From Chthoniobacteraceae bacterium (GTDB lineage Bacteria > Verrucomicrobiota > Verrucomicrobiia > Chthoniobacterales > Chthoniobacteraceae), in contig JANNXQ010000142.1 in assembly GCA_031409655.1 (NCBI GenBank), positions 1 to 17,847 on the forward strand: DNA of 17,847 nucleotides. Direction: 5' to 3'. The notes beneath the pieces were generated by a model. That model searched no databases. It was given only the letters and a program-made list of their open reading frames with translations, and was not told the DNA's origin. Position numbers and translations under genes: made by a program. This document shows positions 1 to 17,847 of this stretch, one piece after another (position 1 is the stretch's first letter; every line of letters starts with the position of its first letter).

Positions 1-1
1 G

Positions 2-1525
2 GGTTCGGCGAATGACGTGACCGTTTATGATGTCGAGTCCGGACTGCCGGTGTCGCCGCCGATGCGGCATCACTACTTCGTCGTGGGACTCAGCGCCTCG
101 GCGGATGGCACGCGCACGGTCAGCCACGGCTGGGACGACACCGCCATCGTGTGGGACGCGCAGCAGGGGCGGCGGGCACTGAGTCCGATCGTGTATGGCG
201 TCGGCGGGGCGAAGCGGGTCGCGGTCGCGCTTTCACGAGATGGACGACGCGTCCTCGTGCATGTCGCGGACAAACAGCCAGAGTCCATCATGGTCTGGCG
301 TGGCAGCGCGCGGAGCGAACCGCTGCGGCACGCGGTGGAGGGACAGCGCGGCTTCGATGCCGGCCCGATGAGTCCCGATGGCCGTCTCGGTGTGCTCGGT
401 CTTTCTCCCGACCGACGCTGCCACGTCTATGAACTCGCGACGGGCCGCGTGCTGCTCGACAAGCCGACCGCCGGGGATGTTTATGTCCCGCTCTTTTCTC
501 CCGACATGAAGCGTTGCTACGCGCTCACCGCGAACGGCTGGCTCTACGGCTGGGACTTGGAAACCGGCGCGGAACTTTGGAAGCCGAATCATCAGCCCGG
601 CTACGTCCGCCCCGGTGCGATTTCGTCCGACGGCACACGCATCATCGCCGGGCACAACGATGGCCACATCCGCATCTACGACACCGCCACCGGCGAAGTC
701 GTGCAGACGCTCGATCATCCCGGCGAGGTGAAAGTGCTGCGCTTTGCCCCCGATGGCAGCGGACGCTTTCTCTCCGCCTCCACGGACCGGCTCGCGCACG
801 TCTGGGATTTGGCGACGGGGAAAAAACTTCAGACTTTCGCCGGCCACAGCGACACCATCATCGCCGGCGCGTGGAGCCGCGACGCACGTTTCATCGCCAC
901 CGCTTCCTACGACACGACCGCGCGCATCTGGGACGCGACGAGCGGCCAGCCCATCGGTGCGCCCATGCCGCATCTGGGCTGGCTGTCGCATTTGGAATTC
1001 AGCCCCGACGGCACACGCCTCGCCACCGTCTGCCGCGATGGCACCGCGCGCCTGTGGCATCCGCTTACCGGCCAGCCCGCATCACCGCCGCTCGCGCTGC
1101 AGACGAGCGGCGAGGCCGTGCGCTTCACCGCCGATGGCAAAGCGTTCGTCGTCCGTGACCACGATGGTTTCCGCTTCTGGGACACCGCGAACGCCGAGCC
1201 GGTCACGCCGCATTACGCCGAGCCATCCTCCGGCGGCTTGGGCATGGACAGCGAAAACTGGCGGGCCATCATGACACCCGACGGAACGCGCGTCTTCCTC
1301 GCCGCCTCGATGAATGACGGCGCGCTCTGGAGCATCCCGCAGCCGCGTGCTCCCGCCCCAGCCTGGCTCCCCGCCTTCCTCGAAACGCTCGCTGGCCTGC
1401 GCCTCGACGACCACGGCGAACTCCGCCTCCTCCCGCCCAGCGCACCACCCGCGCTCCCAGTCGGCATTTCCGAAGATGAATACGCGGCGTGGGCGCGGAA
1501 AATCCTCGGCGAAGCGAGGCGCTGA
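2..1525 (+). CDS. 5'-truncated WD40 beta-propeller protein; probably the C-terminal sensor region of a Ser/Thr kinase paralogous to 11790-15344
   Basis: The frame is open from the window edge (GSANDVTVYD...). It has many WD40 repeats (GHSDTI...SYDTTARIWD, LDHPGEV...TDRLAHVWD) and is colinear with the C-terminal ~500 aa of 11790-15344, sharing DGTRIIAGHNDGHIRIYDTATG, LRFAPDGSGRFLSASTD and YAAWAR[K/R]ILG. The kinase domain would lie outside the window, so that part is inference. Confidence 0.9.
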   Translation, partial: GSANDVTVYDVESGLPVSPPMRHHYFVVGLSASADGTRTVSHGWDDTAIVWDAQQGRRALSPIVYGVGGAKRVAVALSRDGRRVLVHVADKQPESIMVWRGSARSEPLRHAVEGQRGFDAGPMSPDGRLGVLGLSPDRRCHVYELATGRVLLDKPTAGDVYVPLFSPDMKRCYALTANGWLYGWDLETGAELWKPNHQPGYVRPGAISSDGTRIIAGHNDGHIRIYDTATGEVVQTLDHPGEVKVLRFAPDGSGRFLSASTDRLAHVWDLATGKKLQTFAGHSDTIIAGAWSRDARFIATASYDTTARIWDATSGQPIGAPMPHLGWLSHLEFSPDGTRLATVCRDGTARLWHPLTGQPASPPLALQTSGEAVRFTADGKAFVVRDHDGFRFWDTANAEPVTPHYAEPSSGGLGMDSENWRAIMTPDGTRVFLAASMNDGALWSIPQPRAPAPAWLPAFLETLAGLRLDDHGELRLLPPSAPPALPVGISEDEYAAWARKILGEARR

Positions 1526-1583
1526 AAACTTTTTTGCCGATTCGCGTAAGGTTGCGCGCGCGGCCGGTAAGAACTCGGGTGCA
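1524..1583 (+). promoter_or_regulatory. Putative ECF-sigma promoter, copy 1: A/T tract, GTAAGGTTGCG (1546-1556), N7, CCGGTAAGAAC (1564-1574)
   Basis: The bipartite motif has the same spacing in four intergenic regions. Here it ends 9 nt before ATG 1584. Confidence 0.75.
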
Positions 1584-4500
1584 ATGAAAATTCTCCCGAC
1601 TCCGTTCACTTCCATTCCGGCGATTTTGCGCCTCCGCTTTTGGACGGGGATCATCATGGCGCTCTGGCTCCTGCCGGCGCAGGGGGCGGTCGTCACGGTC
1701 ACGAATACGAATGACTCCGGGCCGGGTTCGCTGCGGGGATCCATCGCGGCAGCGGCGGCGGGCGATACCATCCAGTTTGCGGTCGCGGGCACGATCACGC
1801 TCAGCAGCGGACAGCTCCTCATCGACAAGAGCCTCACCATCCGCGGCCCCGGCGCGGGGACGCTGACCCTCCGCGGCAACGGTGCCGAACGCGTCGTCGA
1901 GGTGCTCAACGGCACCATCGCGGCGATCTCCGGCGTGACCATCACCGGCGGCTACCAGCCATTCGAGCATGGCGGCGGCATCTTGAATGGGGGTTCGCTC
2001 ACGGTCTCGCGATGCGTCATCAGCGACAATCGCACGGGGGTCGATTATGAGGGCGCGGGGATCATGAATTTCGGGACGCTGGCGGTCCATGAGTCCATCA
2101 TCTCGGACAACCATGGCTACAATGGGGGCTCCAAGGGTGGCGGGATCTCGAGCTACGGTTCGCTGACGGTCGTGGGATCGACCATCTCCGGGAATACCGT
2201 CGGGTATCTGAGCGAGGGGGCCGGGATTTTTTGCGGGGATGGCTCGGCGACCATTGCGAATTGCACCATCTCCGGCAACGCCCTGGCCGGAGGCAACGGC
2301 GGCGGCATCGCGATCAGGAGCGCGACGGTGTCGGTCACCCAGTGCACGATCGTGGGCAACAGCGCCGGCAACGGTGGCGGCATCTATCTCCCCGCGTTCG
2401 ATACGGGCACGCTGACGTTGGCCAATACCATCGTCGCCGGCAACACTGCGACCTCGGTGGGCCGCGAGATTCAGGGCTCCGCGGCAGCGATCTCGGTCGG
2501 GCACAATCTGCTGGGCCAGAGCGGGGAGACCACCGGCCAGGCGCTCGCGGGCTTTTCTCCCGTGGCCAGCGATCTCACCGCGACCAGCGATGGCACGACC
2601 CCGAGCGCATTGAACACGATCCTCACCACCGCGCTGGCCGGCAATGGCGGTGCCACGCAGACGCATGCGCTGTCGGCGGGCAGCCCGGCGATCGACGCGG
2701 GCGACAATGCCGTGGCCACGAATGCCGGACTCACCACCGACCAGCGCGGCGCACCGTTTGCCCGGAGGATTGGCGTGGTCGATATCGGCGCGTATGAGGT
2801 GCAGGCGGCGATCGGGGTCATCGTCGTGGATACCACGGTGGATGAAAACGACGGCCACTACGGCCCCGGCGATCTCAGCCTGCGCGAAGCCATCGCCCTG
2901 GCCACCGCCAATCCCGCCTTCCGGACCATCACCTTCTCCGATGGGACGAATGGGACGATCAATTTCTCCGATGGCACGGCGCGGACGATCACGCTGTCCT
3001 CCGAGCTGGCCATCGACAGCAGCGTGACGATCACCGGCCCCGGCGCGGACAAGCTCACCGTCAGCGGCAACAACGTCAGCCGCGTGTTCAACATCGGGAG
3101 CGGGAATTACAACGTCACGTTCACCGGGCTGACCATTGCGAATGGGCGGCGCCTCGGCGCGACGGTCGCCGGTCCCTCCGTCGGGCCGACCGAGGCGGGC
3201 GGGGGCATCGCCAGTGCGAGCAACGGCATCCTCACCATCACGGCCTGCGTCATCAGCGGAAACTCCGTGACCGGTGGCGCGGCGGTGGGCGAAACGGGCG
3301 GGGACGGTTTGGGCGGGGGCATCTACTGCTCGGCGGGCACGCTCCTGCTTTCTCGCAGCACCATCGCCGCCAATACCGCCAATGGGGTCGCCAGTTCACC
3401 TGATGGCTCGGGCTATGGCGGCGGCATTTACCTCGGCGGCACGGCGGCGGCGGCGCTGGTGAATTGCACGCTGTCCAGAAACCAGGCATTGACACCCGAC
3501 GGCTCTCTCGGTGGCGCCGGTCTCTACCACGCGGGCAGCGGACCGGTCACGCTGACGCACTGCACTGTCTCGGCGAACCACATGCAATCAGGCCTCTTCC
3601 CGGGTGGCGGCGTCGTCCGCGCGGGTGCCGGCACGGTGACGGTGGCCAACAGCATCATCGCCGGGAACACGTCCAACTCCTCCAGCTCGGATCTGGGCGG
3701 CGCCTTCACCTCCGCCGGGCACAATCTCATCGGCTCGCAGGACACGATCGCCGGCTTGACGACGGCCACCGGATTTACCCATGGCGCGAACGGCGATCAG
3801 GTGGGCACCGTCGGCTCGCCGATCAATCCGCTGCTCGGCGCGCTCGCGAACAATGGCGGGCCGACGCCGACGATGGCCTTGCTCGGCAGCAGCCCGGCGA
3901 TCGATGCGGGCAGCAACGCCACGGCCATCGCCGCGGGGCTGGCGGTGGATCAGCGCGGCTACGTGCGCTTCGTGGGCGGTGCGGTGGACATTGGCGCTTT
4001 TGAAAGCGGGGCGGCGGCGGTGCCGGCGGCGCTCGTGGTGACGACCACGGCGGACAAGCTGAACTTCGACAACACCGGCCTCGCGTTGCGCGAAGCCCTT
4101 TTCCTCGCCAATGGCGCGGGCACGCCGCAGACGATCACTTTCGACCCGACGGTCTTCGCGACGCCGCAGACGATCACGCTGACTACGATCGGCGACCCGA
4201 CGGCGGGGCCGAGCGCGTTTGGCATCCGCACGGAGGTGACGATCGTCGGCAGCGCCGCCGGGGTGACGCTGGCCGGAGGCGGCGCGGGCTCGAGTCTGCG
4301 CGCTTTTTACGTCGCGGCGACGGGGCGTCTGACGCTGCAAAATCTGGCGTTCAGCGGCTTTCGCCACAAGGGCGGTGATAGTTCCAACGCGGGCGGTGCG
4401 GCGGGGATGGGCGGCGCGATCTTCAACCATGGCGGAGCCGTGAGCGTCGTGGCCTCGACGTTTTTGGGGAACATTTCCCAAGGAGGATCGAGCGGCGTGG

Positions 4501-6407
4501 GAAGTGTGAGTTTCGGTGGTGGTGGCCTGGGCGGAGATGGCGCCGGCAATAGCGGAGGCGGGCCGAACGGTGGTGGGGGCAGCGGCGCGGGCGGAGGTTT
4601 CGGAGGTGGCGGGTCGTTCGGCGCACCGGGCGACAATGGTGGCAGTGGTGGCTTCGGTGGAGGCGGGGGCACCAACCAGAATGCGCAGCTCGGTGGGCTC
4701 GGCGGTTTCGGCGGTGGCGGTGGTGGAGCCGACTCGGGGGCCGCCGCGGGCAACGGCGGCTTCGGCGGTGGGCGCGGCGGCGGCAATTACCGGGGCGGTG
4801 GCGGCGCGGGCATGGGGGGAGCCATCTTTGCCAATGGCGGCACGACCTCGATCACGAACAGCACCTTTGCCAATAACTCCGCCCTCGCCGGCACCGGCGC
4901 GAACAACGGCCGGGGCTATGGCGGCGTGATCTTTGCCCGCAATGGCACGCTGACCATCGAGAGCAGCACCTTTAGCGGCAACACTGCGGCGGATGGCGGA
5001 CGCGGCGCTTACGTCTATAGCGACACCGGCGGCGGCGGCAATAACACCAGCCCCGGCAACGGCGTGGCTGTGGCGACGATCCGCAACACGATCCTCGGCG
5101 GCAGCGACACCGCCGTTTCGGACTTCGTGGCCGACAGCAGCGGCGGCGGCAGCGTGACGTCGAGCGGCGCGGGCAACTTGATCCGCACGGCGGTCAATTT
5201 CGGCGGCACGATCGTGAGCACGGCCAACCCCGGCCTCGGCGCGCTCGCGAGCAACGGCGGCCCCACGCAGACGATGGCGCTGGCGACGAACAGCCCGGCG
5301 ATCAATGCCGGAAGCGGCAGCGGTGCGCCCGCGACCGATCAGCGCGGCAAATTGCGGCCGCAGTTTGGCGTGGTGGATATCGGCGCGTATGAGCAGACGC
5401 CGTTCGACACGGGGCAGACCATCGTGAATGTCGGCGGGGCCTACTGGTATCTCGGGCCGGATGTGGTCGGCGGGGATTTGCGCGTCTATCGCGAAGTGCC
5501 GGGGCAGATCGCGGAGTGGGTGGGCTTCGGCGTGGGCGTGCGCATCGGCCGGGCCCTAGACGGCACCGTGCTCGTGGAAAATGCCAGCGGTGGCGTGTAT
5601 GCGCGCGCGGGATCGAGTGGCGGCAGCATCGGCACTTCTTGGCAGTTACTGACTTCCGTGACTGCCGGCGATGGCGCCACCTGGTTCTTCGGCCCCGATG
5701 CCCTCGGGCCGGACTTCTACATTTACCGCTGGGCCGCCGGCGGCGCACCGACTTACAGCTTTGGTTACGGCACGCAGCTTTCCGTCGCCACGAATGGCTC
5801 CATCCTCGCCCTCAACAACGCGGGACAACTTTACCTCCGCGTGGGCTCCAATGCGGGCCTCGGTTCCGTCTGGCAGCTCCAGAATCGCAACCCGGTCGCC
5901 GGGCTCGACATCATCCACCGCTACCCGACGCAAAGCGTGAAAGTGCTCCTCGCCACCTTGCTCGCGAATGACACCGATCCCGACGGCGACACGCCGCTCA
6001 CCATCACCGCCCTCGGCACGCCGTCATCCGGCCAGGCCACCGTCTCGCTCTCGGATGGACGCGCCTTTTACCAACCCGCCGCCGGATCCACCGGCGCGGA
6101 CACCTTCACCTACCAGCTCTCCGACGGCCACGGCGGCACCGCCACCGGCACCGTGAATGTAGAGATCATCGGCAACAACGGCACCGCGCAGAACATCACG
6201 AAAATCGAGATGCTCCCCGGTGGCTCCGCCGGGATCAGCTTCGCCGCCATCCCTGGCCGCACCTACCGCGTGCAATCCACCGACAGCCTCGCCCCCGCGA
6301 ACTGGCAGACCCTCGCCACCGTGACAGCCGATGCGCAGGGCCGAATCGAAATCATCGACCCACCGCCGCTCCCGCCCTCGCGCTTCTACCGCACCGTCAC
6401 GCCATAA
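1584..6407 (+). CDS. Large secreted/surface protein (~1607 aa): signal peptide, three CSLREA-like/choice-of-anchor-Q parallel beta-helix units, Gly-rich insert, tectonin-like module, cadherin-like (Big_9-type) Ig domain, Verrucomicrobia-type RFYR C-terminal domain
   Basis: The start is placed at 1584, not 1314, because it gives a signal peptide (MKILPT...IIMALWLLPAQG|AVVTVTNTNDSGPGSLR) and aligns with ATG 7290 through the duplicated upstream region. The three units begin GSLRGSI, LSLREAI and LALREAL and end in NGGxTxTxAL..SPAI[D/N]AG..DQRG..DIGA[Y/F]E. LLANDTDPDGD...DTFTYQLSDGHGGTATGTV is cadherin-like. The protein ends GRTYRVQSTDSL..W...RFYRTVTP. Confidence 0.88.
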   Translation: MKILPTPFTSIPAILRLRFWTGIIMALWLLPAQGAVVTVTNTNDSGPGSLRGSIAAAAAGDTIQFAVAGTITLSSGQLLIDKSLTIRGPGAGTLTLRGNGAERVVEVLNGTIAAISGVTITGGYQPFEHGGGILNGGSLTVSRCVISDNRTGVDYEGAGIMNFGTLAVHESIISDNHGYNGGSKGGGISSYGSLTVVGSTISGNTVGYLSEGAGIFCGDGSATIANCTISGNALAGGNGGGIAIRSATVSVTQCTIVGNSAGNGGGIYLPAFDTGTLTLANTIVAGNTATSVGREIQGSAAAISVGHNLLGQSGETTGQALAGFSPVASDLTATSDGTTPSALNTILTTALAGNGGATQTHALSAGSPAIDAGDNAVATNAGLTTDQRGAPFARRIGVVDIGAYEVQAAIGVIVVDTTVDENDGHYGPGDLSLREAIALATANPAFRTITFSDGTNGTINFSDGTARTITLSSELAIDSSVTITGPGADKLTVSGNNVSRVFNIGSGNYNVTFTGLTIANGRRLGATVAGPSVGPTEAGGGIASASNGILTITACVISGNSVTGGAAVGETGGDGLGGGIYCSAGTLLLSRSTIAANTANGVASSPDGSGYGGGIYLGGTAAAALVNCTLSRNQALTPDGSLGGAGLYHAGSGPVTLTHCTVSANHMQSGLFPGGGVVRAGAGTVTVANSIIAGNTSNSSSSDLGGAFTSAGHNLIGSQDTIAGLTTATGFTHGANGDQVGTVGSPINPLLGALANNGGPTPTMALLGSSPAIDAGSNATAIAAGLAVDQRGYVRFVGGAVDIGAFESGAAAVPAALVVTTTADKLNFDNTGLALREALFLANGAGTPQTITFDPTVFATPQTITLTTIGDPTAGPSAFGIRTEVTIVGSAAGVTLAGGGAGSSLRAFYVAATGRLTLQNLAFSGFRHKGGDSSNAGGAAGMGGAIFNHGGAVSVVASTFLGNISQGGSSGVGSVSFGGGGLGGDGAGNSGGGPNGGGGSGAGGGFGGGGSFGAPGDNGGSGGFGGGGGTNQNAQLGGLGGFGGGGGGADSGAAAGNGGFGGGRGGGNYRGGGGAGMGGAIFANGGTTSITNSTFANNSALAGTGANNGRGYGGVIFARNGTLTIESSTFSGNTAADGGRGAYVYSDTGGGGNNTSPGNGVAVATIRNTILGGSDTAVSDFVADSSGGGSVTSSGAGNLIRTAVNFGGTIVSTANPGLGALASNGGPTQTMALATNSPAINAGSGSGAPATDQRGKLRPQFGVVDIGAYEQTPFDTGQTIVNVGGAYWYLGPDVVGGDLRVYREVPGQIAEWVGFGVGVRIGRALDGTVLVENASGGVYARAGSSGGSIGTSWQLLTSVTAGDGATWFFGPDALGPDFYIYRWAAGGAPTYSFGYGTQLSVATNGSILALNNAGQLYLRVGSNAGLGSVWQLQNRNPVAGLDIIHRYPTQSVKVLLATLLANDTDPDGDTPLTITALGTPSSGQATVSLSDGRAFYQPAAGSTGADTFTYQLSDGHGGTATGTVNVEIIGNNGTAQNITKIEMLPGGSAGISFAAIPGRTYRVQSTDSLAPANWQTLATVTADAQGRIEIIDPPPLPPSRFYRTVTP
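5232..5885 (+). repeat. Duplicated coding module, copy A (end of choice-of-anchor-Q unit plus tectonin-like domain); partner at 9831-10481
   Basis: By-hand alignment of 5337-5462 with 9936-10061 gives 116/126 identical nt, with 8 synonymous and 2 non-synonymous differences. Protein similarity continues to WQL[Q/L]N. Confidence 0.92.
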
Positions 6408-6426
6408 CTCTTACTGACTTACTCCG

Positions 6427-7185
6427 ATGAAAAGTAACTTACTTCTTGCCGCACTCACACTGTTCGCGCTCGCCGCTATCCCCGCGCGCGCCGTCCTCAT
6501 CGAGACCCATAGCTTTACCGGCTTGAATCTCGACATCCCCGACGGCAACCCCAGCGGCCTCGCCAACGTGCAAAACTTCACCACCTTTATCGGAAGCATC
6601 ACCGACCTCGAGGTAAGCTTGAAGATCACCGCCACGCCCGACTTCGCGCCGCTCGCCTTTGCCGGCGACCTCTACATTTACCTGAGCCACAGCACCGGCT
6701 TCTCCGTGCTCCTCAATCGCGTCGGCCGCGCCCTCGCCGCGCCCTTCGGCTACGACGACAACGGCCTCGACATCACCCTCGACGACGAAGCCGGGAATGG
6801 CGACGTGCATCTCTATCGCACCGTCACCACGCCCTCTCCCGGCTCGCCGCTCACCGGCACCTGGTCCCCCGATGCCCGCGCCACCGATCCGAACCTCGTC
6901 CTCGACACCGACCCCCGCACCTCCCTGCTCAGTAACTTCGACGGCCTGAGTGCCGCCGGCGACTGGACCCTCTTCGTCGCCGATTTATCCACCGGCGAAG
7001 AACACCGCCTCGAAGATTGGTCCCTGAAAATCACCGGCGAAGCCGTCCCCGAACCCGCCACCGCCGCCCTGCTCGCCCTCGGCGCGCTCGGCGTGCTCAC
7101 GCCCCGCCGGCGGAGGCGGTTGAGTGGATGCGCCCCGCGTGATCTCGCTGAGAGGGGATCCAGCCCAGCCCGTCTCCTACGATGA
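6427..7185 (+). CDS. PEP-CTERM sorting-domain protein with a proprotein-convertase P-domain-like jelly-roll
   Basis: Signal peptide MKSNLLLAALTLFALAAIPARA|. P-domain-like pattern IPDGNPSG...ITDLEVSLKIT...GDLYIYLSH...LSNFDG..AAGDWTLFVAD...LEDWSLKI. C-terminal VPEP, hydrophobic helix and RRRRR. It lies 19 nt after the previous stop, so co-transcription is likely. Confidence 0.9.
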   Translation: MKSNLLLAALTLFALAAIPARAVLIETHSFTGLNLDIPDGNPSGLANVQNFTTFIGSITDLEVSLKITATPDFAPLAFAGDLYIYLSHSTGFSVLLNRVGRALAAPFGYDDNGLDITLDDEAGNGDVHLYRTVTTPSPGSPLTGTWSPDARATDPNLVLDTDPRTSLLSNFDGLSAAGDWTLFVADLSTGEEHRLEDWSLKITGEAVPEPATAALLALGALGVLTPRRRRRLSGCAPRDLAERGSSPARLLR

Positions 7186-7231
7186 ACACGCCGCGTGGAC
7201 CGGAAAAGTGATGCGCCTGCCGCAACGCGGA
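7160..7231 (+). pseudogene. Relic of the 3' end of a WD40-kinase gene
   Basis: An off-frame translation reads PAQPVSYDEHAAWTGKVMRLPQRG, versus PALPVGISEDEYAAWARKILGEARR* at the end of the first gene. From GAT 7181 (=1475+5706) it is gap-free, with the same 5706-nt offset as the adjacent promoter duplication. Confidence 0.75.
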
Positions 7232-7289
7232 AAACTTTTTTACCGAATCGCGTAAGGTTTCGCGCGGGGCCGGTAAGAACTCGGGTGCA
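7230..7289 (+). promoter_or_regulatory. Putative ECF-sigma promoter, copy 2: A/T tract, GTAAGGTTTCG (7252-7262), N7, CCGGTAAGAAC (7270-7280)
   Basis: 7230-7294 matches 1524-1588 at 61/65 nt without gaps, including the ATG. Confidence 0.78.
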
Positions 7290-10200: not shown

Positions 10201-10907
10201 CCCGCCCCGGTTCCACCACTGGCCTCGGCAGCGGCTACCAACTGCTTTCCTCCGTGACCGCCGGCGACAGCGCCACCTGGTTCCTCGGCCCCGATGGCAA
10301 CGCGAATGACTTCAACATTTACCGATGGTCGAGCAGCAGCAGCCCGGCCTACAGCAACGGCTTCGCGACGCAGCTTTCCATCACGGCCAACGGCTCCATC
10401 CTCGCCCGGAACAACGCTGCGACTAACTACCTCCGCCTCGGCTCCAACAGCGGGCTCGGCACAAACTGGCAACTTCTGAACGGCCCGCTCCCCATCTGGC
10501 GGGCGCTCCAAAGTCTCGCCGACAACGGCACGGAAGACCTCGCGAACCCCTCCCGCGACGGCGTCGCGAACCTGCTCAAATACTCCTTCAACCTGGCCCC
10601 GAACGCCGGCGACCTCGCGCGGGTGAATCTCGGCGTGCTGCCCGCCAACGGCACCGCCGGGCTGCCTTTCATCACACAAGACCCGCAAGGCCGCCTGTTC
10701 ATCGAGTTCGTCCGCCGCAAAGCCGCGACCAATCCCGGCATCACCTGCATCATCGAGACCGGCGACGACCTCACTGCCCTGCAGCCGCTCGACCTGAGCG
10801 GCGCGGCCGTCGTCTCCATTGATGCAACCTGGGAGCGCGTCACCGTCACCGACCCAACCATCACGCCCAACCGCTTCGCTCGCGTGCGGGTGAGCGTTGC
10901 GCCGTAG
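7290..10907 (+). CDS. Secreted/surface protein (1205 aa): signal peptide, two CSLREA-like/choice-of-anchor-Q beta-helix units (the first divergent), tectonin-like module, Verrucomicrobia-type C-terminal domain
   Basis: Signal peptide ...GLFAGVLGLCLPVLAQA|ANLVV. First unit VTLRDAINAAN...IDIGARA; second unit PLRSAL...GGAI..FTGN repeats...NGGLTQTVALLPGSPAVNGG..DQRG..DIGAFE. C-terminus DGVANLLKYSFNLAP...IEFVRRK...ERVTVTDP...RFARVRVS. Confidence 0.88.
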   Translation: MNTSSPANPVSAPSARARVRWRGLFAGVLGLCLPVLAQAANLVVNSNADPVGFNPNITIATLGPVVTLRDAINAANNTGGTNVITFDPSLNGGEITLNRIATITISSSLTINGPGRDNLGIVAYYTTNPAVESVFAINAGNNVTISGLDLKYSYGPVGSILIPGSTATRFIVSAGSLTIRDCRFLARSGRNIIDGVAGNISSLGNQYLNSDGFSLIHFAQTTSLDPVGTLLCQNDHFEGNSGRFGICIYAEGVKAVIIGCRFIGTTAEGIVFTGGGGVMGNSAPVVLASLCDLISLNNTFYANEFGRLPDLCAVDCLSAFSANDTFCSAYFTPTSQVGVQGTPITFVHSTLMAGVLEGAGAWNIQDPGTIGPSPIAQTLRVKNSFLGVPTLGYGNPALIISENSPVVQATNWAAYLMTYGANSNGQDYATTFGLPGIGSFGGPGLTVPLCKDSPLKGAGSSLGLVTVDNGTTLTVDHVEYVAPYLPLRIGSEIVVVTDVPHSTNPVIPSAYDGYRSGTAQITVQRAQYGTTQTNLAGQPITLAFDATGALRNPNQIDIGARASVPHTMTVDTVADDPGIQTLYVGNGPVFRGRIYVPLRSALTVAEADGGGTVTFDPSLAGQTVTLTKGWSRSNDVSALQVTTPVTIQGPGNAPGVTLAIGAGVPRRHFQVSSTGALTLQNLTLTGGNCPSGGGAIFSQGLLNVDGCTFTGNTSAQEGGALWNYGAGTQTQVKNSTFAGNTSVQNGGAISTACELMTLTNVTIVDNSITGTVGGGIHRYSGATRLVNSIVARNTANGSPNNVTSIVNPLDAANSFNNLLGADVAGPNGSGLTNGVNGNKVGIAAASLGLGALASNGGLTQTVALLPGSPAVNGGTATGAPTNDQRGKLRPQFGVVDIGAFEQTPFDTGQTIVNVGGGYWYLGPDAVGSDLRVYRELPGQLATWVDNGTATRIGQALDGTVLVENSSGGVYARPGSTTGLGSGYQLLSSVTAGDSATWFLGPDGNANDFNIYRWSSSSSPAYSNGFATQLSITANGSILARNNAATNYLRLGSNSGLGTNWQLLNGPLPIWRALQSLADNGTEDLANPSRDGVANLLKYSFNLAPNAGDLARVNLGVLPANGTAGLPFITQDPQGRLFIEFVRRKAATNPGITCIIETGDDLTALQPLDLSGAAVVSIDATWERVTVTDPTITPNRFARVRVSVAP
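9831..10481 (+). repeat. Duplicated coding module, copy B; partner at 5232-5885
   Basis: Same alignment as copy A; the offset is 4599 nt at the 5' end. Confidence 0.92.
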
Positions 10908-10977
10908 CTGGATGCGTAGATCCCGGAGCGCATTGGCCCATTGAATCGGTGCGCGGTGCCCGCGACAGTCCGCAGCG

Positions 10978-11739
10978 ATGCGCGATGAACGCCCCGTTGA
11001 TTTACCAGACCCGAACAGTCCGCAATTTCCCCACACCCGATGGAGTGTGGTGGTGCGGGCTAATGCGGGTTCGGAGGCTGGGGCGCACGAGGCGCTGGCG
11101 GATTTGTGCCGCGATTATTGGCGGCCGCTCTTCTATTTCGCGCGCCGGAAGGGGCACTCGCCGGAGGACGCGCAGGATCTCACGCAGGGGTTTATCGCGG
11201 AATTGCTCGAGCACAATGCGATCGCCCGGGCGGATCGCGATCGCGGGCGGTTTCGCACGTTTTTGATTTCGTCGTTCTGCCACTTCCTCGCCAATGCCCA
11301 GCGCGATCGCTCGACGCAGAAACGCGGGGGTGGAGTCGTTGTGGTGTCACTCGATGACGAGGAGGATGCGGGTGGCGCGCAGATGGCGGTGGACGGGACG
11401 ACGCCGGAGATGGAATACGAACGTCGCTGGGCGCTGGGGTTGCTGGAGCGGGTGATGGCGAGGCTGCGCGCGGAGTATGTGGAGGCGGAACGTGGGGCGC
11501 TCTTCGATGCGATGGAGCCGCATCTCTCCGGCGCGGCGGGACGGCCCGGTTACGCGGCGATCGGTGAGGCGCTGGGCTTGAGCGAGGGGACGATCCGCGT
11601 GGCGATGCATCGCATGCGGCGGCGATACGGGGACCTGCTGCGCGAGGAGATGGCGGCGACGGTGACGACGCCCGAGGAGATGGAGGATGAGCTGCGCCAC
11701 CTGACGAATGTCGTGGCGGGTGTGCCGAGCCGACTGTGA
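10978..11739 (+). CDS. ECF-family (sigma-70 group 4) RNA polymerase sigma factor of the Ser/Thr-kinase-associated type
   Basis: N-terminal FPHTRWSVV; region 2 ALADLCRDYWRPLFYFARRKGHSPEDAQDLTQGF...RGRFRTFL...FLANAQR; region 4 HTH YAAIGEALGLSEGTIRVAMHRMRRRY. It is directly upstream of a kinase, and no anti-sigma gene is visible. Confidence 0.93.
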   Translation: MRDERPVDLPDPNSPQFPHTRWSVVVRANAGSEAGAHEALADLCRDYWRPLFYFARRKGHSPEDAQDLTQGFIAELLEHNAIARADRDRGRFRTFLISSFCHFLANAQRDRSTQKRGGGVVVVSLDDEEDAGGAQMAVDGTTPEMEYERRWALGLLERVMARLRAEYVEAERGALFDAMEPHLSGAAGRPGYAAIGEALGLSEGTIRVAMHRMRRRYGDLLREEMAATVTTPEEMEDELRHLTNVVAGVPSRL

Positions 11740-11740
11740 G

Positions 11741-11789
11741 ATTTTTGAAACGTTTCGGCGGGAACCGGTAAGAACTGTCCGCAACCACG
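11741..11789 (+). promoter_or_regulatory. Putative ECF-sigma promoter, copy 3: T tract, GAAACGTTTCG (11747-11757), N7, CCGGTAAGAAC (11765-11775)
   Basis: The downstream box and spacing are identical to copies 1 and 2 although the flanks are unrelated. It ends 14 nt before the kinase ATG. Confidence 0.75.
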
Positions 11790-14700
11790 ATGGCGAATCC
11801 CATTTCCAACGATCCCGACGCCGCAGCGCAGCGGACGTGCGCGACTTGCGGCGCGGCGCTCGCTGCAGGCCGGCTCGGCGCGCATTGCCCGCGCTGTTTG
11901 TTCGGTCTCGCGAGCGGGTTCGGATTGGCGGGCGAGGCGGTGGACGAGGATCTGCCCGACCCGGCCGATTGGCGCGGCTTCGGCGACTACGAGTTGATCG
12001 AGGAAATCGCACGCGGCGGGATGGGCGTGGTGTATCGCGCGCGGCAGATGAGTCTCGGGCGCGAGGTGGCAATCAAGATGATCCTCGCGGGCGAGCTGGC
12101 GACGGCGGAGTCGGTGCAGCGCTTCCGCAATGAAGCGGCGGCGGCGGCGCGGCTGCATCACCCGAACATCGTTTCCGTGTATGAAATCGGGCAGCACGAG
12201 ATGCAGCATTTTTTCTCGATGCGGCTCGTGTCCGGGCGGCGCAATGTCGCGACGTGGGCGAAGGGAGTCGCGCCGTCATCGGGACAGATCGTGGCGATGA
12301 TGGTGAAGACGGCGCGCGCTGTCGCTTTTGCCCACGAGCGCGGAGTGCTGCATCGCGACCTGAAGCCGTCGAATATTCTCGTGGACGAAATGGGCGAGCC
12401 GCACGTGACGGATTTCGGCCTGGCGAAGCTGGTGAATCAGGACAGCGGGATCACGCGTTCCGCCGCAATGCTCGGCAGCCCGAGCTACATGGCGCCCGAG
12501 CAGGCGGACTCGCGCCAGGCGGATGTGACCATGGCGACCGATGTGTATGGGCTCGGCGCGGTGCTTTACGAACTGCTCGCGGGCCGGCCTCCATTTGTGG
12601 GCGCGTCGCCGCTGGCCACGGCGAAGATGGTCGTCGAGCAGATGCCGGAACGACTGGAGGCAGTGCCGCGCGATCTTGCCACGATCTGCCTGAAGTGCCT
12701 GGAGAAAGAGCCCTCGCAGCGTTACGCCACGGCGCTGGAACTGGCCGAGGATCTAGAGCGCTTCGCGCGTGGGGAGCCGATCCGCGCGCGCCCGATCACC
12801 GCCCCCGAGGCGCTCTGGCGTTGGGCGCGGCGGCGGCCGGGGATTGCGGCGCTGCTCGGCGCGCTGGCGCTGGCGCTGGTGCTCGGCCTGGCGGGCGTGA
12901 CGTGGCAATGGCGGCGCGCAGAGCGGGCGAACGCGCAGCAACTCAAGACGCTCGACCACCTGGCGTGGAAGGAAATCGTGCGCCAGGCCGGGAGCGACGA
13001 TGCGCCGATCGCCCTGGCGGCGCTCGCCGCGAGGCTGCGGGCCGATCCCGGGCGCTGGCAGGCGGCGATGCTCGCCATGTCCCTCGTCGAGCAGAGCGCG
13101 TTTCCGGTGATCGTCGGGCCGCCAGTCGTGCCCGTGGGGAAACTACGCGCACCGCCCCGGATCGCGCCGGATGGCCGTTGGTTCGCGGCGACCGGGGAGG
13201 ACACGGCGGTGCAGGTGTGGGACACGGCGACGGGCGCAGTGCGGGCGAAAATCGCGCTGCCCGCGGTGGCGACGGCGCTCGCGGTGGCGCAAGGCCCGTT
13301 CGTGCTCGCCGTCGCGACGAAGGATGCGCAAGTGCGAGTCCACGCGGCGCTCAATGGTCCCGCTCTCGTCCTCGCCCGCACCGGCACGGAGCCGATCAAT
13401 GATCTGCGCTTTTCCGCCGACGGCTCGCGGCTCCTTGCGCGTTCCCGCGATCGTGTGGAAGTCTGGCGCTGTGCGCAGCCGGAGCAGCCGCTCTCTTTTT
13501 CCCTCGATGGAGGCATCCGTGGCGCGGCGATCTCCGCCGATGGATCGCGGGTGCTGGCCTGGAATGCGAAGCGCGCCACGGTCTGGGAAGCGGAGTCCGG
13601 CCAGGCAAAGCTCGCCGTCGCCGCGCAGGCGGATTTCCGGCAGGGCGCGCTGGCGGCGGGAGGAAAACGGGTGGCGCTCATCGATGGCGCCTTTGTCACG
13701 CGGACTTGGGACGTGGATGCGGGCACGCCGCTCAGCGTCATCGACAGCCCGCTCTCGTCGCTGAAGTTGCTCGCGCTGGATGGCGGCGGCGGGCGCATCA
13801 CGCTGGCCGCCTTCTCAAATGAACTGATGGTCCACGATACCGCCTCCGGGCTGCGGGTCTCGCCACCGATGCAGCATCTTTACCAACCCACCGCGCTCAT
13901 CGGTTCGGGCGACGGCGCACGCACGGCGAGCTATGGCCGGGATGGTCGCGCGCACGTGTGGGATGCGGCGACGGGCCGCTCCCTGCTCGGCGGCATCTGG
14001 CTCGGAGATGATCGTCTCGTCGCCCCGGACTTCTCACACGATGGCCGCGCTCTGCTGCTCGCGCCCTGGCCGTCGCCCGACGGCGCGGCACCGATCAGCG
14101 TCTGGCGCGAGAGCCGCACGGCTCCGCCCCGCGTGCAGCGCGTGGAAGGGCAGCGCGATTTCAATGGCTGCCGGCTCAGCCCCGATGGGCGGCTCGGCTG
14201 CCTCGGCTTGTGGCCGGGGAAGCGGGCGCATGTCTATGAACTGGCGACCGGGCGCGTGCTGCTCGACGCCGCGGTCGGCGGCGATGTCTATGTCCACCTT
14301 TTCTCCCCCGACATGCGCCGCTACTACGCGCTGACTTCCAACGGCTGGCTGCACGGGTGGTCGCTCGACACTGGCGCGCCGCTGTGGCCGGCGAACCACC
14401 AGCCCGGCAATATCCGCCCCGGCGAAATCTCGCCCGACGGCACCCGCATCATCGCCGGGCATAATGACGGTCACATCCGCATCTACGACACGGCGACCGG
14501 CGCGCTCCTGCGGACGCTCGACCATCCCGGCGAAGTGAAGACGCTGCGCTTCGCGCCGGATGGCAGCGGGCGTTTCCTCTCCGCCTCCACCGATCACCTC
14601 GCGCACCTCTGGGATCTGCGGACGGCAGAAAAAGTGCGGACCTTCGCCGGACACACGGACACGATCCTCGCGAGCGCATGGAGCCCGGACAGCCGCTTCG

Positions 14701-15344
14701 TGGCCACGGCTTCCTACGACCAGACGGCGCGCGTGTGGGACGCCGCCACCGGCCTGCCCGTGGGCCGGCCGATGCCGCATTTCGCCTGGCTCTCGCACCT
14801 GGAGTTCAGCCCCGATGGCCGCCGCCTCGCCACGGCCTGCCGCGATGGCACCGCGCGTCTCTGGCATCCACGCACCGGCGAACCCGCATCACCGCCGCTC
14901 CCGCAGGGCAGCACCGCCGAAACCGTGCGCTTCACCCGCGATGGGGCCTGTCTTCTCGTGCGCGATCATCTCGGCTTCCGCTTTTGGGATGCAGAAAATG
15001 GCGAGCCCGTCACCGTCCACTACCCGGCCCCGGCCTCGGGCGGGCTCGGCATGGACGCCGATTCCTATCGGGCCGTCCTCTCGCCCGATGGCACCCAGGT
15101 CTTCCTCGGGTATTCGATGAATGAAGGCGCGCTGTGGACCATCCCGCAGCCCCGCGATCGCGTGCCGGAGTGGTTCCCGGATTTCCTGGAAAGTCTCGCG
15201 CTCGTGCGGCTGGACGCCTCGGGCACGCCGGCGGTTTTGTCAGGCGAGGGCCTGCTCCGGCTGAGGAAAATGCTCGCCGACCCACGCCACGACGGCCTCT
15301 ACGCCGCGTGGGCGCGGAGGATTCTCGGCCTGGCCGATCGGTAG
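11790..15344 (+). CDS. Membrane-anchored Hanks-type Ser/Thr protein kinase with an N-terminal CxxC/CxxC motif and C-terminal WD40 beta-propellers
   Basis: IARGGMGVVY, VAIK, RFRNEA, HRDLKPSN, DFG, GSPSYMAPEQ and DVYGLGAVLYELL are all intact. A hydrophobic TM segment IAALLGALALALVLGLAGVTWQW (~12843-12911) follows RRR. About 700 aa of WD40 repeats follow. Confidence 0.96.
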   Translation: MANPISNDPDAAAQRTCATCGAALAAGRLGAHCPRCLFGLASGFGLAGEAVDEDLPDPADWRGFGDYELIEEIARGGMGVVYRARQMSLGREVAIKMILAGELATAESVQRFRNEAAAAARLHHPNIVSVYEIGQHEMQHFFSMRLVSGRRNVATWAKGVAPSSGQIVAMMVKTARAVAFAHERGVLHRDLKPSNILVDEMGEPHVTDFGLAKLVNQDSGITRSAAMLGSPSYMAPEQADSRQADVTMATDVYGLGAVLYELLAGRPPFVGASPLATAKMVVEQMPERLEAVPRDLATICLKCLEKEPSQRYATALELAEDLERFARGEPIRARPITAPEALWRWARRRPGIAALLGALALALVLGLAGVTWQWRRAERANAQQLKTLDHLAWKEIVRQAGSDDAPIALAALAARLRADPGRWQAAMLAMSLVEQSAFPVIVGPPVVPVGKLRAPPRIAPDGRWFAATGEDTAVQVWDTATGAVRAKIALPAVATALAVAQGPFVLAVATKDAQVRVHAALNGPALVLARTGTEPINDLRFSADGSRLLARSRDRVEVWRCAQPEQPLSFSLDGGIRGAAISADGSRVLAWNAKRATVWEAESGQAKLAVAAQADFRQGALAAGGKRVALIDGAFVTRTWDVDAGTPLSVIDSPLSSLKLLALDGGGGRITLAAFSNELMVHDTASGLRVSPPMQHLYQPTALIGSGDGARTASYGRDGRAHVWDAATGRSLLGGIWLGDDRLVAPDFSHDGRALLLAPWPSPDGAAPISVWRESRTAPPRVQRVEGQRDFNGCRLSPDGRLGCLGLWPGKRAHVYELATGRVLLDAAVGGDVYVHLFSPDMRRYYALTSNGWLHGWSLDTGAPLWPANHQPGNIRPGEISPDGTRIIAGHNDGHIRIYDTATGALLRTLDHPGEVKTLRFAPDGSGRFLSASTDHLAHLWDLRTAEKVRTFAGHTDTILASAWSPDSRFVATASYDQTARVWDAATGLPVGRPMPHFAWLSHLEFSPDGRRLATACRDGTARLWHPRTGEPASPPLPQGSTAETVRFTRDGACLLVRDHLGFRFWDAENGEPVTVHYPAPASGGLGMDADSYRAVLSPDGTQVFLGYSMNEGALWTIPQPRDRVPEWFPDFLESLALVRLDASGTPAVLSGEGLLRLRKMLADPRHDGLYAAWARRILGLADR

Positions 15345-15356
15345 CCCTCACCGCCG

Positions 15357-15430
15357 GAAAATTTTTTTCGGAGATTCGGTAACGTTTCGCGAAAGACCGT
15401 TGAGAACAGCGGTGAACCACCTTCTTCATC
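15357..15430 (+). promoter_or_regulatory. Putative ECF-sigma promoter, copy 4: A/T tract, GTAACGTTTCG (15379-15389), N7, CCGTTGAGAAC (15397-15407)
   Basis: Same two boxes and the same 18-nt start-to-start spacing. As with copy 1, it follows a WD40 gene stop and precedes a secreted protein. Confidence 0.7.
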
Positions 15431-17847
15431 GTGCGAACCATCCACCGTCTCCTCGTCCTCTCCATTTTCCTCCTCGCGGGAGTCGCCCGCGCGCAGGACA
15501 TCAATGCTACCGTCGCGCCCAATATCGGCGGGAGCGACAACTTCGTGGATATTCCAAATACCACCGGCGGGCGTCTTCACTTTTTCACCAATCCGTCGCC
15601 CTCGGCTGCGAGGATGGCAAAGGTGTCCGGGGGAACCAGCGTAGCCGAGTGGCCGACCGTGGGAACTTTCGCTCCCGATCCGAACAATTCCTTCAATCGC
15701 ATCTTCCCGACCGAGACCCTGCGCGTCTATCCGAAGACCCTGGCGGCCGGCTCGACGATCCTGATCGAGTTCAGCTACACGCCGGTTGGCACCCGCTACT
15801 ACTATCGCGTGCTGGTGACCGCGGGTGTCCAGGTGACCTCGATCGTGACTCTGGACCCCTCGCCGACGGCGGAAGTCTCCGTGCGGTGGCGGGTGACCTT
15901 TGACACCCCGGTGAGCAATGTGACGGCGAATAACTTTGCCTTCAGTAGCGGCAGTAGCGGTGTGAGCGGCGTCTCCATCACGAGCGTGGTGCCGGACACG
16001 GCGCAGCCGAGCTCCTCGTGGACGGTGACCGCCAACACCGGCAGCTACCTCGGCCTGCTCTATCTCAACTGGGCAGGCCAACGCACGGAGTCGCCCCCGG
16101 TGGCCAACACCTTCACGGGTTTTCCCTACACCTTCCAGTCTGCGCCATTCTTCGATCTGAATCTCGGGCCGGTAACCATCAACCGCTCCAGCACGGTGAC
16201 GCTGAATGTCCATGCCACCATGCGGAACGGCGCCACCGTCTATTACCAGTGGTATATCGGCACCTGGTTCGACACGAACCCCGTCGCGATCCCGGGCGCG
16301 ACCGGCACCAGCTACACACCGCCCGTATTCAATACGACCGGGACTTTTAATTACCATTGCATCGCCCACGCCACGCCCCTCAACCCCGCGAACAGCCTTC
16401 AGAAAAGTGCGACGGCCATCATCACCGTGGTCGATCCGCCAAACATCACGACTTCTCCGGCGAGCCAGACGATTCCCTACAACCAAACCGCCACCCTCTC
16501 CGTCGCGGCCACTGGGACGGCTCTGAAGTATCAGTGGTTCCAGGTCTCGGGGAGCGGGCCGGACATCCCCGTCGGGATCGATTCGCCGACCTACACCACG
16601 CCGGCACTGACGGCGGATGCGCAATACTATGTGCGGGTGAGCAATGCCGGCCCCACCGTGCGGACGAGTGCGGTGGCCACCATCTCCGTGCTCGAGCCGC
16701 CGAGCCTCGTGGTGACCCTCCTCGGGGATGTGGTGAACAACCGCGACCGGCAGACGAGCTTGAGGGAAGCGGTCGCTTACGCGCAGACGCTGGGCGGGCA
16801 GCAGACGGTCACTTTCGCGCCGGGCCTCGCGGGGCAGACGGTGACGGTCGTCAATGGCTGGAACGGGGCGGGCGACGACACCGCGCTGCGCATCGCCGGC
16901 AATGTGACCATCGACGGCGGCACGGGGGTGACGATCCAGCTCGCCTCGCCCACGCCGCGCCGCATCTTCATCAGCGGCGGCGGAACATTCACCCTGCGCA
17001 ATCTCACGCTGAGCGGCGGCGACATCCGCATGGTGAGCAGTGGCGGCGCGCTGTGGAGCACCGGCACCGTCAACATCCAGAACGTGCGCTTCACCAACAA
17101 CCGGGCCGACCATGGCGGCGCAATTTACAACCTCGGCACGATGACGATCAGCGGATCGTCGTTCGACAACAACGCCACCGCCGCGAACGGGCAGGGCGGC
17201 GCAATCTGGAGCAACGGCACCCTCGGCATCAGCAGCACGCTTTTCTCCCTAAACACCGCGGGACAGCTCGGAGGAGCGATCGCCTCGTTTAATGGACTGA
17301 CCGTCACCGATTCGACCTTCAGCGGCAACCAGTCCGCCTTCAACGGCGGGGCACTGCGGCTCGACGGCACTGCGGTCATCGCGGGCTCGACCTTTTCCAA
17401 CAACACCGCCGTCAACGGTGGCGGCGCGCTCATCAGCCACGGTCAGACGACGATCACCAATTCGACCATCGCCTACAACACCGCGCTCGACGGCGGCGGT
17501 GCGCAGTTTTTCGAAGGCACCGCCAGTCTGCGTCACGTGACCTTCGCCAACAACGGGGCCACCCGCGCGGGCGGCGGCATGGCGGTGAACTCCGCGAATG
17601 TGACGATGACCAACACCATCGTCGCCGCCAACTCCGCGCCGGATCAGAACAACCTCTGGGGCGGGCCGCTGAACGCCGCGTCGTCCAACAATCTGCTCAA
17701 TCTCAACGCCGCCCAGGCCGGGCTCGGCGCATTCGCCTTCAATGGCGGGCCGACCGCGACCGTCGCGCTGCTGGCCGGTTCGCCCGCCATCAACGCGGGC
17801 ACGAACATCGCCGGGATCACCTCCGACCAGCGCGGCGTCCTGCGTCC
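15431..17847 (+). CDS. 3'-truncated secreted protein (>805 aa): signal peptide, unassigned N-terminal region, Ig-like domains, CSLREA-like/choice-of-anchor-Q beta-helix unit
   Basis: Absent from the ORF track because there is no stop in the window. Manual translation from GTG 15431 gives MRTIHRLLVLSIFLLAGVARA|QDINAT...; Ig-like VYYQWY..AIPGATGTSYT and PNITTSPASQTI..ATLSVAATG..LKYQWF..YYVRVSN; QTSLREAVAYA; GGAI repeats; NGGPTATVALLAGSPAINAG..TSDQRGVLR at the window edge, in the same frame. Confidence 0.9.
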   Translation, partial: MRTIHRLLVLSIFLLAGVARAQDINATVAPNIGGSDNFVDIPNTTGGRLHFFTNPSPSAARMAKVSGGTSVAEWPTVGTFAPDPNNSFNRIFPTETLRVYPKTLAAGSTILIEFSYTPVGTRYYYRVLVTAGVQVTSIVTLDPSPTAEVSVRWRVTFDTPVSNVTANNFAFSSGSSGVSGVSITSVVPDTAQPSSSWTVTANTGSYLGLLYLNWAGQRTESPPVANTFTGFPYTFQSAPFFDLNLGPVTINRSSTVTLNVHATMRNGATVYYQWYIGTWFDTNPVAIPGATGTSYTPPVFNTTGTFNYHCIAHATPLNPANSLQKSATAIITVVDPPNITTSPASQTIPYNQTATLSVAATGTALKYQWFQVSGSGPDIPVGIDSPTYTTPALTADAQYYVRVSNAGPTVRTSAVATISVLEPPSLVVTLLGDVVNNRDRQTSLREAVAYAQTLGGQQTVTFAPGLAGQTVTVVNGWNGAGDDTALRIAGNVTIDGGTGVTIQLASPTPRRIFISGGGTFTLRNLTLSGGDIRMVSSGGALWSTGTVNIQNVRFTNNRADHGGAIYNLGTMTISGSSFDNNATAANGQGGAIWSNGTLGISSTLFSLNTAGQLGGAIASFNGLTVTDSTFSGNQSAFNGGALRLDGTAVIAGSTFSNNTAVNGGGALISHGQTTITNSTIAYNTALDGGGAQFFEGTASLRHVTFANNGATRAGGGMAVNSANVTMTNTIVAANSAPDQNNLWGGPLNAASSNNLLNLNAAQAGLGAFAFNGGPTATVALLAGSPAINAGTNIAGITSDQRGVLR

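Follow-up and report, generated by a model that had tools for sequence, protein, structure and literature searches.

In EcfK/PknS of Xanthomonas citri and EcfP/PknT of Vibrio parahaemolyticus, both of the ECF43 family, the text available to us describes an extracytoplasmic function (ECF) sigma factor with a one-pass Hanks receptor kinase encoded at position +1 and without a separate anti-sigma gene (PMC13147305; PMC8999054). According to the accessible part of a 2022 review, kinase-associated ECF sigma factors outside ECF43 keep an acidic motif, may work differently and have in no case been characterised (PMC8999054). The same gene arrangement is found in a 17,847-nucleotide (nt) stretch of DNA from a Chthoniobacteraceae bacterium (contig JANNXQ010000142.1 of assembly GCA_031409655.1), hereafter the window. 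The source is described as a sediment bacterium. The window is the entire contig C142 of a genome of 6.85 Mb in 306 contigs (G000), so that the bases upstream of base 1 are outside reach; its seven genes all lie on the + strand, and their open reading frames have the coordinates given in a preliminary description of this sequence. We consider it probable that Verrucomicrobiota have in this locus a portable module for trans-envelope signalling, in the order sigma, promoter, receptor kinase, promoter and output.

The sigma factor (10978–11739) belongs to the FxTTxWS family and matches TIGR02937 with 53.7 bits (cut-off 42.9). It carries the sequence DAQDLTQG in region sigma2.2 and an arginine, R207, in the −35 recognition helix. 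At +1 lies the gene of a receptor kinase of 1184 amino acids (kinase-WD40, 11790–15344), comprising a C4 zinc ribbon plus helix at residues 17–46 (pattern CxxC-x12-CxxC), a Hanks kinase domain with intact catalytic motifs, a single transmembrane helix (residues 352–370) and WD40 propellers. The pairing of a transmembrane kinase-WD40 with an ECF sigma factor, as preliminarily described, is thus supported by the sequence. No reading frame fits in the 50-nt junction between the two genes. The accompanying claim that an anti-sigma is lacking holds for a separate gene, but not in full, because the N-terminus of the kinase was modelled gripping the sigma factor. For planctomycete kinases of like type, the kinase is predicted inside and the WD40 part outside in the accessible text of the source (PMC11032199), and by analogy we infer that the kinase domain would be cytoplasmic and the WD40 part external. 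A structure model of the WD40 part matched generic propellers only.

The order of WD40 gene end, conserved motif and secreted gene occurs three times in the window, as had been described, and the motif precedes all three cargo genes; a fourth window copy is located in the sigma-kinase junction. Two further copies in the genome lie in a sigma-kinase junction at the end of contig C43 and, on contig C35, ahead of a cargo gene with FG-GAP domains. The motif is bipartite, with a constant 15-nt spacing and a spacer sequence that is free across families, and stands ahead of target genes. Before cargo 1, an A/T tract and ECF-type promoter (1526–1575) contain the −35 box GTAAG (1546–1550), the 15-nt spacer and the −10 box GGTAAG (1566–1571), and the site before cargo 2 (7232–7281) has the same boxes at 7252–7256 and 7272–7277; both score 26.4 bits, the former within a tie at ranks 2–4, and have G as the fifth −35 base (class G). 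The two class C sites are those of the sigma-kinase junction (11740–11776; GAAAC at 11747–11751, GGTAAG at 11767–11772; 21.4 bits, rank 7) and, again with an A/T tract, of cargo 3 (15355–15408; GTAAC at 15379–15383, GTTGAG at 15399–15404; 25.2 bits, rank 6). These scores come from a matrix built by an unseeded two-block search of 17 junctions from 10 other loci, with the window sites held out, and its consensus is GTAAG, 15 nt, GGT(A/G)AG. In a scan of the 6.85-Mb genome, the six expected sites were found at ranks 1–4, 6 and 7 (21.4–27.4 bits), in support of the promoter-type motif of the preliminary description. Nine more sites beyond the training set (G001, G003, G012, G477, L164) scored 19.5–27.3 bits at kinase or cargo starts. 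In the wider sigma family, junctions carry GTAAC with differing −10 boxes. Scans for sigma-70 promoters and terminators gave chance level only. An exact-pattern search of 151 family genomes matched five, with reversed controls about equal; it was uninformative beyond G000 and G012, and the matrix was used instead. From these patterns we strongly infer that the motif is the promoter read by the cognate ECF sigma factor, which would therefore raise the output genes as well as its own kinase.

The two promoter classes correspond to a difference between sigma factors. In sigmaE, R171 contacts the base pair at −31, and R or K goes together with C, as far as the accessible text of the source goes (PMC1540707). 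Residue 207 is the equivalent of R171 by its spacing to H211 and R212, which correspond to F175 and R176. With the fifth −35 base masked, C is present at 4 of 4 sites of the two R207 sigma factors in the clade delineated below and at 0 of 16 sites of ten non-basic ones. The −35 base tracks the base-reading residue of sigma4 in the clade as expected, over few independent events: the clade members are kin and represent about two, a loss at the clade base and a regain in the window lineage. Class C sites 11747 and 15379 suit R207 of the window sigma factor, and class G sites 1546, 7252, C35 and C43 suit T207 of the paralogous sigma factor on C43.

A genome_contigs scan with five kinase-WD40 ends yielded 53 loci, 15 of them close (L154–L168, 40–94%); G376 and G477 came from phylum and family scans. 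The close loci belong to Verrucomicrobiota, and those nearest to the window have the record titles Chthoniobacteraceae and Verrucomicrobiaceae. A sigma gene lies directly upstream in 10 of the 15 (L154, L155, L157, L161, L162, L163, L164, L166, L167, L168); L165 is too short for an upstream view, and a sigma-kinase pair is present in its genome. L164, L167 and L168 each have a disrupted kinase frame. An orphan kinase has a promoter identical to that of the sigma-kinase pair of the same genome (L156 and L167). The distribution of the module is patchy: one close locus among 79 in a metagenome scan, on the same contig as L162, one other genome in a phylum sample of 400, and six genomes in a family sample of 150, two of them just 33–37% identical.

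Phylogenies of both partners agree on one clade. Twelve sigma factors ahead of a window-type kinase (or stub) form, with four sigma factors linked to type III secretion system (T3SS) genes, one clade among 56 (100/95) in a tree that left out the L167 sigma factor; a quick rerun without six long or basal rows gave the clade a Shimodaira-Hasegawa-like approximate likelihood ratio test (SH-aLRT) value of 90. In the kinase-domain tree, 16 form a single clade among 22 (SH-aLRT 92). Both the sigma factor and the kinase domain of L161 fall outside, and the matrix fails there also. Of 8000 proteins scored against the FxTTxWS family, 3670 reached E ≤ 1e-30, and the wider family is present in all five planctomycete genomes searched (best E 1e-27 to 1e-78). 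G000 itself contains 17 contig matches, mostly adjoining kinases and with differing junction motifs.

The outputs differ between relatives. Choice-of-anchor Q giants are the output in five other genomes (G001, L155, L162, L163, L164), so that the triad does recur elsewhere, and G001 keeps the order sigma, kinase, promoter and cargo 3 at 92–94%; as a control, 1 of 116 distant WD40 loci, many of them short, has a choice-of-anchor Q gene. Four loci (L154, 12247–22175; L157, 12345–22259; L156; L161) have behind the promoter a secreted operon that encodes a Peptidase_S74 fibre-like protein, a PA14 protein and two proteins without a Pfam or NCBIfam match; Bdello_MAT_N reached 32 bits in this operon, below the cut-off of 60. 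L166, L167 and L168 show no output gene or a contig end. With this fibre operon and the T3SS accompanying the same kinase type, a putative adhesin output, which the preliminary description took to define the system, is one of several. At L056 (G003:C113, 1106–4106), a clade kinase is divergent from a secreted protein of 947 amino acids (ceramidase-like by eye), and the motif stands before each (27.3 and 19.5 bits).

The link to the T3SS was found in four loci (L158, L159, L160 and G376), where the sigma gene lies about 35 kb upstream of the kinase-WD40 gene, on the same contig and strand, with a T3SS cluster between them. In G376:C4:176374–216090 (L225, L226, L051), and likewise in G561, G562 and G563, the ~35-kb cluster and a TPR-glycosyltransferase separate a sister-clade sigma gene from the kinase-WD40 gene. 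SctU, T, R, N, J, C and D of G376 scored above cut-offs, and orthologs of the queried genes are present in the other three genomes. The window-clade matrix misses the leaders of these clusters, with at best 6.9 bits at the kinase junctions of the four loci. GTAAT is their top 5-mer apart from A/T runs (15 of 45 leaders, 3.5 expected); it is rare in coding DNA and sits, in matching places, 53–118 nt before the sctW, effector and chaperone operons. The T3SS-linked sigma factors combine A207 with a non-C base, in line with the residue-207 rule. Four more T3SS loci were checked over 60 kb each. G304, G750 and G219 showed no such sigma gene in this range. G725:C191 (L240, 15596–19854) has an FxTTxWS sigma factor, outside the clade, and a distant kinase-WD40 next to the T3SS, perhaps an independent pairing; a GTAAT-type site was not found at that T3SS locus. 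In G000, no SctN scored above the cut-off.

The three window cargo proteins all match the choice-of-anchor Q profile NF041518, with 214.9, 74.3 and 53.1 bits (cut-off 25); their signal peptides were assessed by eye. Cargo 1 (1584–6407, 1607 amino acids) has three beta-helix/choice-of-anchor Q modules, a Gly-rich stretch and an Ig/cadherin-like domain. Cargo 2 (7290–10907, 1205 amino acids) is an orphan without its own kinase and has one choice-of-anchor Q module. The 5' part of cargo 3 (15431–17847) encodes Ig, beta-helix and choice-of-anchor Q segments, and the gene extends onto contig C60, where PA14, chitobiase/Fn3 and a lectin-like barrel complete 1421 amino acids. The repeated module is predicted to fold as a right-handed beta-helix (predicted local distance difference test, pLDDT, 81.6), and its best structural match is rhombotarget A (RbtA; PDB 9cdu, 9cdv; E 8.8e-05, TM 0.47). 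Domain shuffling of beta-helix/lectin cargo, as proposed before, is borne out by the domain content and by common blocks of 67–93% nucleotide identity that are arranged in differing combinations; cargo 3 has one beta-helix module in the window and three in its G001 ortholog. CSLREA (TIGR04214), which the preliminary description associated with such genes, was matched by none of the three window proteins at E ≤ 0.01; elsewhere L155 passes the cut-off of 25 with 35.5 bits and the C35 cargo fails with 21.2. A low-GC insert in cargo 2 (about 7590–8490; GC 0.50–0.54 versus 0.61–0.68 in the remainder of the gene) has language-model features like those of phage beta-helix clusters (0.92, 144/256 features), a lead only. 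Cargo C-termini at 6350–6407 and 10850–10907 share an R-F-[YAG]-R motif, frequent in secreted proteins of these genomes and without a family match, which is a possible sorting signal. G003 carries a sigma gene, a promoter and a kinase stub joined to a cargo C-terminus.

The third copy of the WD40 gene end, upstream of cargo 2, is, as described, a relic, real but short: it covers the last ~18 codons, with the stop codon lost (7175–7231). Of its 57 nt, 36 agree with the first WD40 gene end, in register before the leader, and identity drops to background further upstream (3–5/15). Because an unrelated site elsewhere in the genome scores as much as 35/57, just 1 lower, the argument for the relic rests on its position. 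A gene for a PEP-CTERM protein with a weak P-domain (6427–7185; TIGR02595 20.8 bits, cut-off 16; PF01483 22.4 bits, cut-off 21) ends within the relic. Comparable relic-plus-promoter leaders are present on C35 and G012:C73. We propose that the unit would multiply both as whole cassettes and as this leader of about 115 nt (WD40 stub plus promoter), which could put new cargo under a sigma factor in trans. On the reverse strand of C35 (L063, about 1525–3190), a PIN-type toxin-antitoxin-like pair and a second PIN-like gene lie between the WD40 end and the cargo gene (gene names judged by eye); two relics of the WD40 end are also present, and in one of them the promoter is cut.

The first WD40 gene of the window (2–1525) is the 3' half of a paralog of kinase-WD40, with 62% identity to kinase residues 676–1184; its 5' half is unassembled. 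C142 and C35 share an identical starting sequence, which marks an assembly fork. The end of C43 carries a sigma gene, a promoter and a kinase start 71% identical to the window kinase, and the middle of that kinase is not present in the assembly. C43 is likely to be the missing 5' part of the first window cassette, since class G sites 1546 and 7252 suit its T207 sigma factor. The ends of C43 (L062) and G012:C47 (L054) break at the identical kinase residue, suggesting that assembly failed at a repeat common to both. On the minus strand of C60 (L064, 7474–7779), a truncated sigma gene with an in-frame TAG follows cargo 3 and appears to be a remnant of one more cassette.

The sigma factor is not of the ECF43 type. 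The ECF43 profile TIGR02999 gave no match to it at E ≤ 0.01, and a sigma factor on C152 of the same genome, used as a control, scored 171.6 bits (cut-off 126.15). Within DAQDLTQG, D67 is invariant and D64 and Q66 are at least 90% conserved across 45 aligned sigma factors; Q66 occupies the position of the ECF43 phospho-site, and the replacement of DAED by S/T residues seen in ECF43, where Thr is the acceptor, is absent. With a WD40 rather than a TPR sensor in addition, we rejected ECF43 identity. ZAS-type anti-sigma factors are marked by an HxxxCxxC zinc motif. The kinase N-terminus lacks this motif and has the CxxC-x12-CxxC ribbon in place of it. A complex model of the sigma factor with the kinase N-terminus scored 0.67, compared with 0.00 for the best of three controls; of 157 solved complexes 116 reach the mark for this score, as do 2 of 215 mismatched pairs, and the mark is only roughly valid with our own alignments. 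At least 73% of contacts agree between runs, with a partner pLDDT of at least 67. The confident interface places mainly kinase residues 17–46, the predicted sigma-binding surface encoded at 11838–11927, which also emerges from family conservation, on sigma residues 149–160, 201–225 and 239–248; it covers part of the −35 recognition helix and does not involve the active site. A sequence-level check found no solved homolog of either partner, with best E values of 0.016 for the sigma family and 0.018 for the kinase N-terminus, and leaves room for fold-level likeness to known anti-sigma complexes. In a survey that labelled kinases near or far by distance, with at least two rows mislabelled, 26 of 37 kinases near such sigma factors have the C4 ribbon, and 5 others have a similar helix without it; ECF43-type partner kinases bear a different N-terminus. 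As the zinc ribbon docks on the sigma factor in the model, the kinase may carry a built-in anti-sigma, and we read the ribbon as a dock for specificity that probably restrains the sigma factor as well.

We hypothesize that the cytoplasmic zinc ribbon and helix would hold the sigma factor at the membrane, as the one model and the conservation suggest, and that the outer WD40 propellers would, by analogy, respond to contact with a cell or surface by switching the kinase on. Holding and release, to which we give somewhat under an even chance, is slightly favoured over phospho-activation alone because the sigma factor retains the acidic core-binding motif. In the latter case, which we rate as a serious though lesser possibility, the circuit would be the same, the sigma factor would be inactive until phosphorylated as in EcfK and EcfP, and the ribbon would be a mere substrate dock. 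The kinase catalytic motifs are indeed intact, conservation across 45 sigma factors reaches at least 90% at T20, T69, T142 and T228, and the final acid of DxxDxxQE is replaced by G; EcfK has, in the accessible text, a second activating site, T106, in the linker (PMC13147305), and T142 is likewise a linker residue. The retained DAQD, the glutamine at the ECF43 acceptor position, the missed TIGR02999 profile and the modelled interface away from the active site speak against it, and the EcfK/EcfP-type activation of the preliminary description is no longer the favoured mechanism. More tentatively, and on balance doubtful in its full form, the ribbon would be a built-in anti-sigma by which the receptor kinase holds and releases an intrinsically active sigma factor, the clade would be a contact-sensing regulator plugged into differing contact machines, and its sister clade would be the T3SS master regulator in four Verrucomicrobiaceae-type genomes. 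Several observations weigh against the module and its hold-and-release mechanism as set out here. In the model, the sigma factor is contacted most tightly at family-specific helices and at the C-terminal half of the recognition helix, a pattern that does not distinguish inhibition from substrate docking. By pattern, 6 of 37 sigma-proximal kinases have neither ribbon nor helix, and 9 of 24 kinases lacking a near sigma gene still show one of them. The sigma and kinase trees agree on the clade and differ within it. The R207 sigma factors are two orthologs and represent one evolutionary event, and an automated family-wide count gave 15/18 versus 1/10; for this count six clade rows had been chosen by their −10 box, and 6 of 34 junctions had no site. 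The genome-scan site at rank 5, on C239 (26.0 bits), is within open frames with no gene start nearby, L166 is without an output gene, and in G477 (L071, G477:C551, 14587, minus strand) the motif after a clade kinase leads into a non-secreted glutaminase-like gene, judged by eye.

The preliminary description had further proposed a shared-promoter array, in which any paralogous sensor switches on any cargo. One matrix does detect all six sites, and a sigma factor in trans is needed both by the orphan cargo genes with only a relic leader (7290, C35, G012:C73) and by the orphan kinase whose promoter is identical to that of its genome's pair (L156, L167), so some promoter sharing is necessary; the T207 sigma factor, with no basic residue at that base, may read both classes. 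However, the four window copies split by the fifth −35 base into two classes that follow residue 207 and match two sigma factors, and R207 is expected to be a poor reader of class G, which would leave at most one-way cross-talk. With 1546 and 7252 assigned to the paralogous sigma factor, free cross-talk between the window cassettes is doubtful and the array as a whole unlikely; sharing within one class, or one-way, is probable. The copies in this genome may instead be starting to insulate, the R207 sigma factor with 11747/15379 and the T207 sigma factor of C43 with 1546/7252. Slightly less likely still is that the amplification is in part an artefact of assembly or binning, with cargo 2 or C35/C43 from a co-occurring strain. 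The genome has 5.26% contamination, and cargo 2-like genes of G012, which follow a relic leader, share 92.5% identity with the 3' half of cargo 2, versus just 83.5% for rpoB, in keeping with recent transfer or mis-binning. In sequencing run X1, possibly of the source sample, no piece bridges 7271/7276 or 9232–10565 among the matches listed, but single pieces with 0–1 differences span 1429–7271, 10565–12044 and 13956–16845; joints with sides of mostly 18–26 letters were left out of evidence. No RNA run was among those listed for the sequence. The 62% identity of the two kinase-WD40 genes of the window and the conserved gene order in G001 also argue against an artefact. Least probable, and by some way, is that the motif is a duplication by-product, a recombination site or the site of another regulator. 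The junction of WD40 end and leader is a rearrangement hotspot, as illustrated by C35 with its two relics and inserted PIN-type module, but the 15-nt spacing is fixed while the spacer is free, the motif also occurs at the sigma-kinase junction outside the duplicated leader, the matrix fails at the four T3SS kinase junctions where a sister motif occurs, and the −35 base co-varies with a known base-reading residue. A promoter for the cognate sigma factor, within a portable sigma-kinase-output module, remains our preferred reading of the motif.

A literature search, in which most matches were assessed superficially, returned no account of the promoter of this sigma family, of a kinase-borne sigma dock or of the regulation of verrucomicrobial T3SS. 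For one family outside ECF43, the locus now supplies candidates for the promoter and the binding surface, a rule linking base to residue, and named outputs; it also points to a candidate regulator of verrucomicrobial type III secretion and illustrates how new surface proteins can come under one switch through a short leader. If true, hold and release of an ECF sigma factor by a receptor kinase would be a mechanism apart from ECF43, and it would apply widely, since the sigma family is large (3670 proteins; 17 matches in this genome).

As far as the accessible texts of the sources allow comparison, the module resembles several known systems in part. EcfK drives contact secretion by a type VI secretion system against amoebae, and the sister clade found here flanks a T3SS (PMC13147305; PMC8999054). 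In contrast to EcfK and EcfP, the sensor is WD40 instead of TPR, the N-terminus has a C4 zinc ribbon instead of a helical segment, and the outputs are giant surface proteins, a fibre operon or a T3SS; in contrast to ECF43, the sigma factor belongs to another family, is missed by TIGR02999 and keeps DAQD. ECF217s1 (PMC7826278) is likewise a kinase-associated ECF family near extracellular-protein domains (dockerin, Planc_extracel), as here with secreted cargo; it is planctomycete, no conserved promoter is reported in the text available, and its cargo domains differ from those of the window. The choice-of-anchor Q modules share the right-handed beta-helix of rhombotarget A (PDB 9cdu, 9cdv; NF041518), but lack a GlyGly-CTERM match and occur in tandem, shuffled with Ig, PA14, FG-GAP and lectin-like domains, and their adhesive role is putative. 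The closest description is that of ECF62 (Casas-Pastor 2021, PMC7826278), also with a +1 kinase with one transmembrane helix, WD40 and an N-terminal zinc finger, predicted only; the match was made by description, irrespective of zinc-finger type. ECF62 is 100% Planctomycetes and described without a conserved promoter or output, whereas the module here is verrucomicrobial and has both. The kinase architecture already exists as a prediction in ECF62; to such kinase-associated ECF signalling the locus adds a candidate promoter and outputs.

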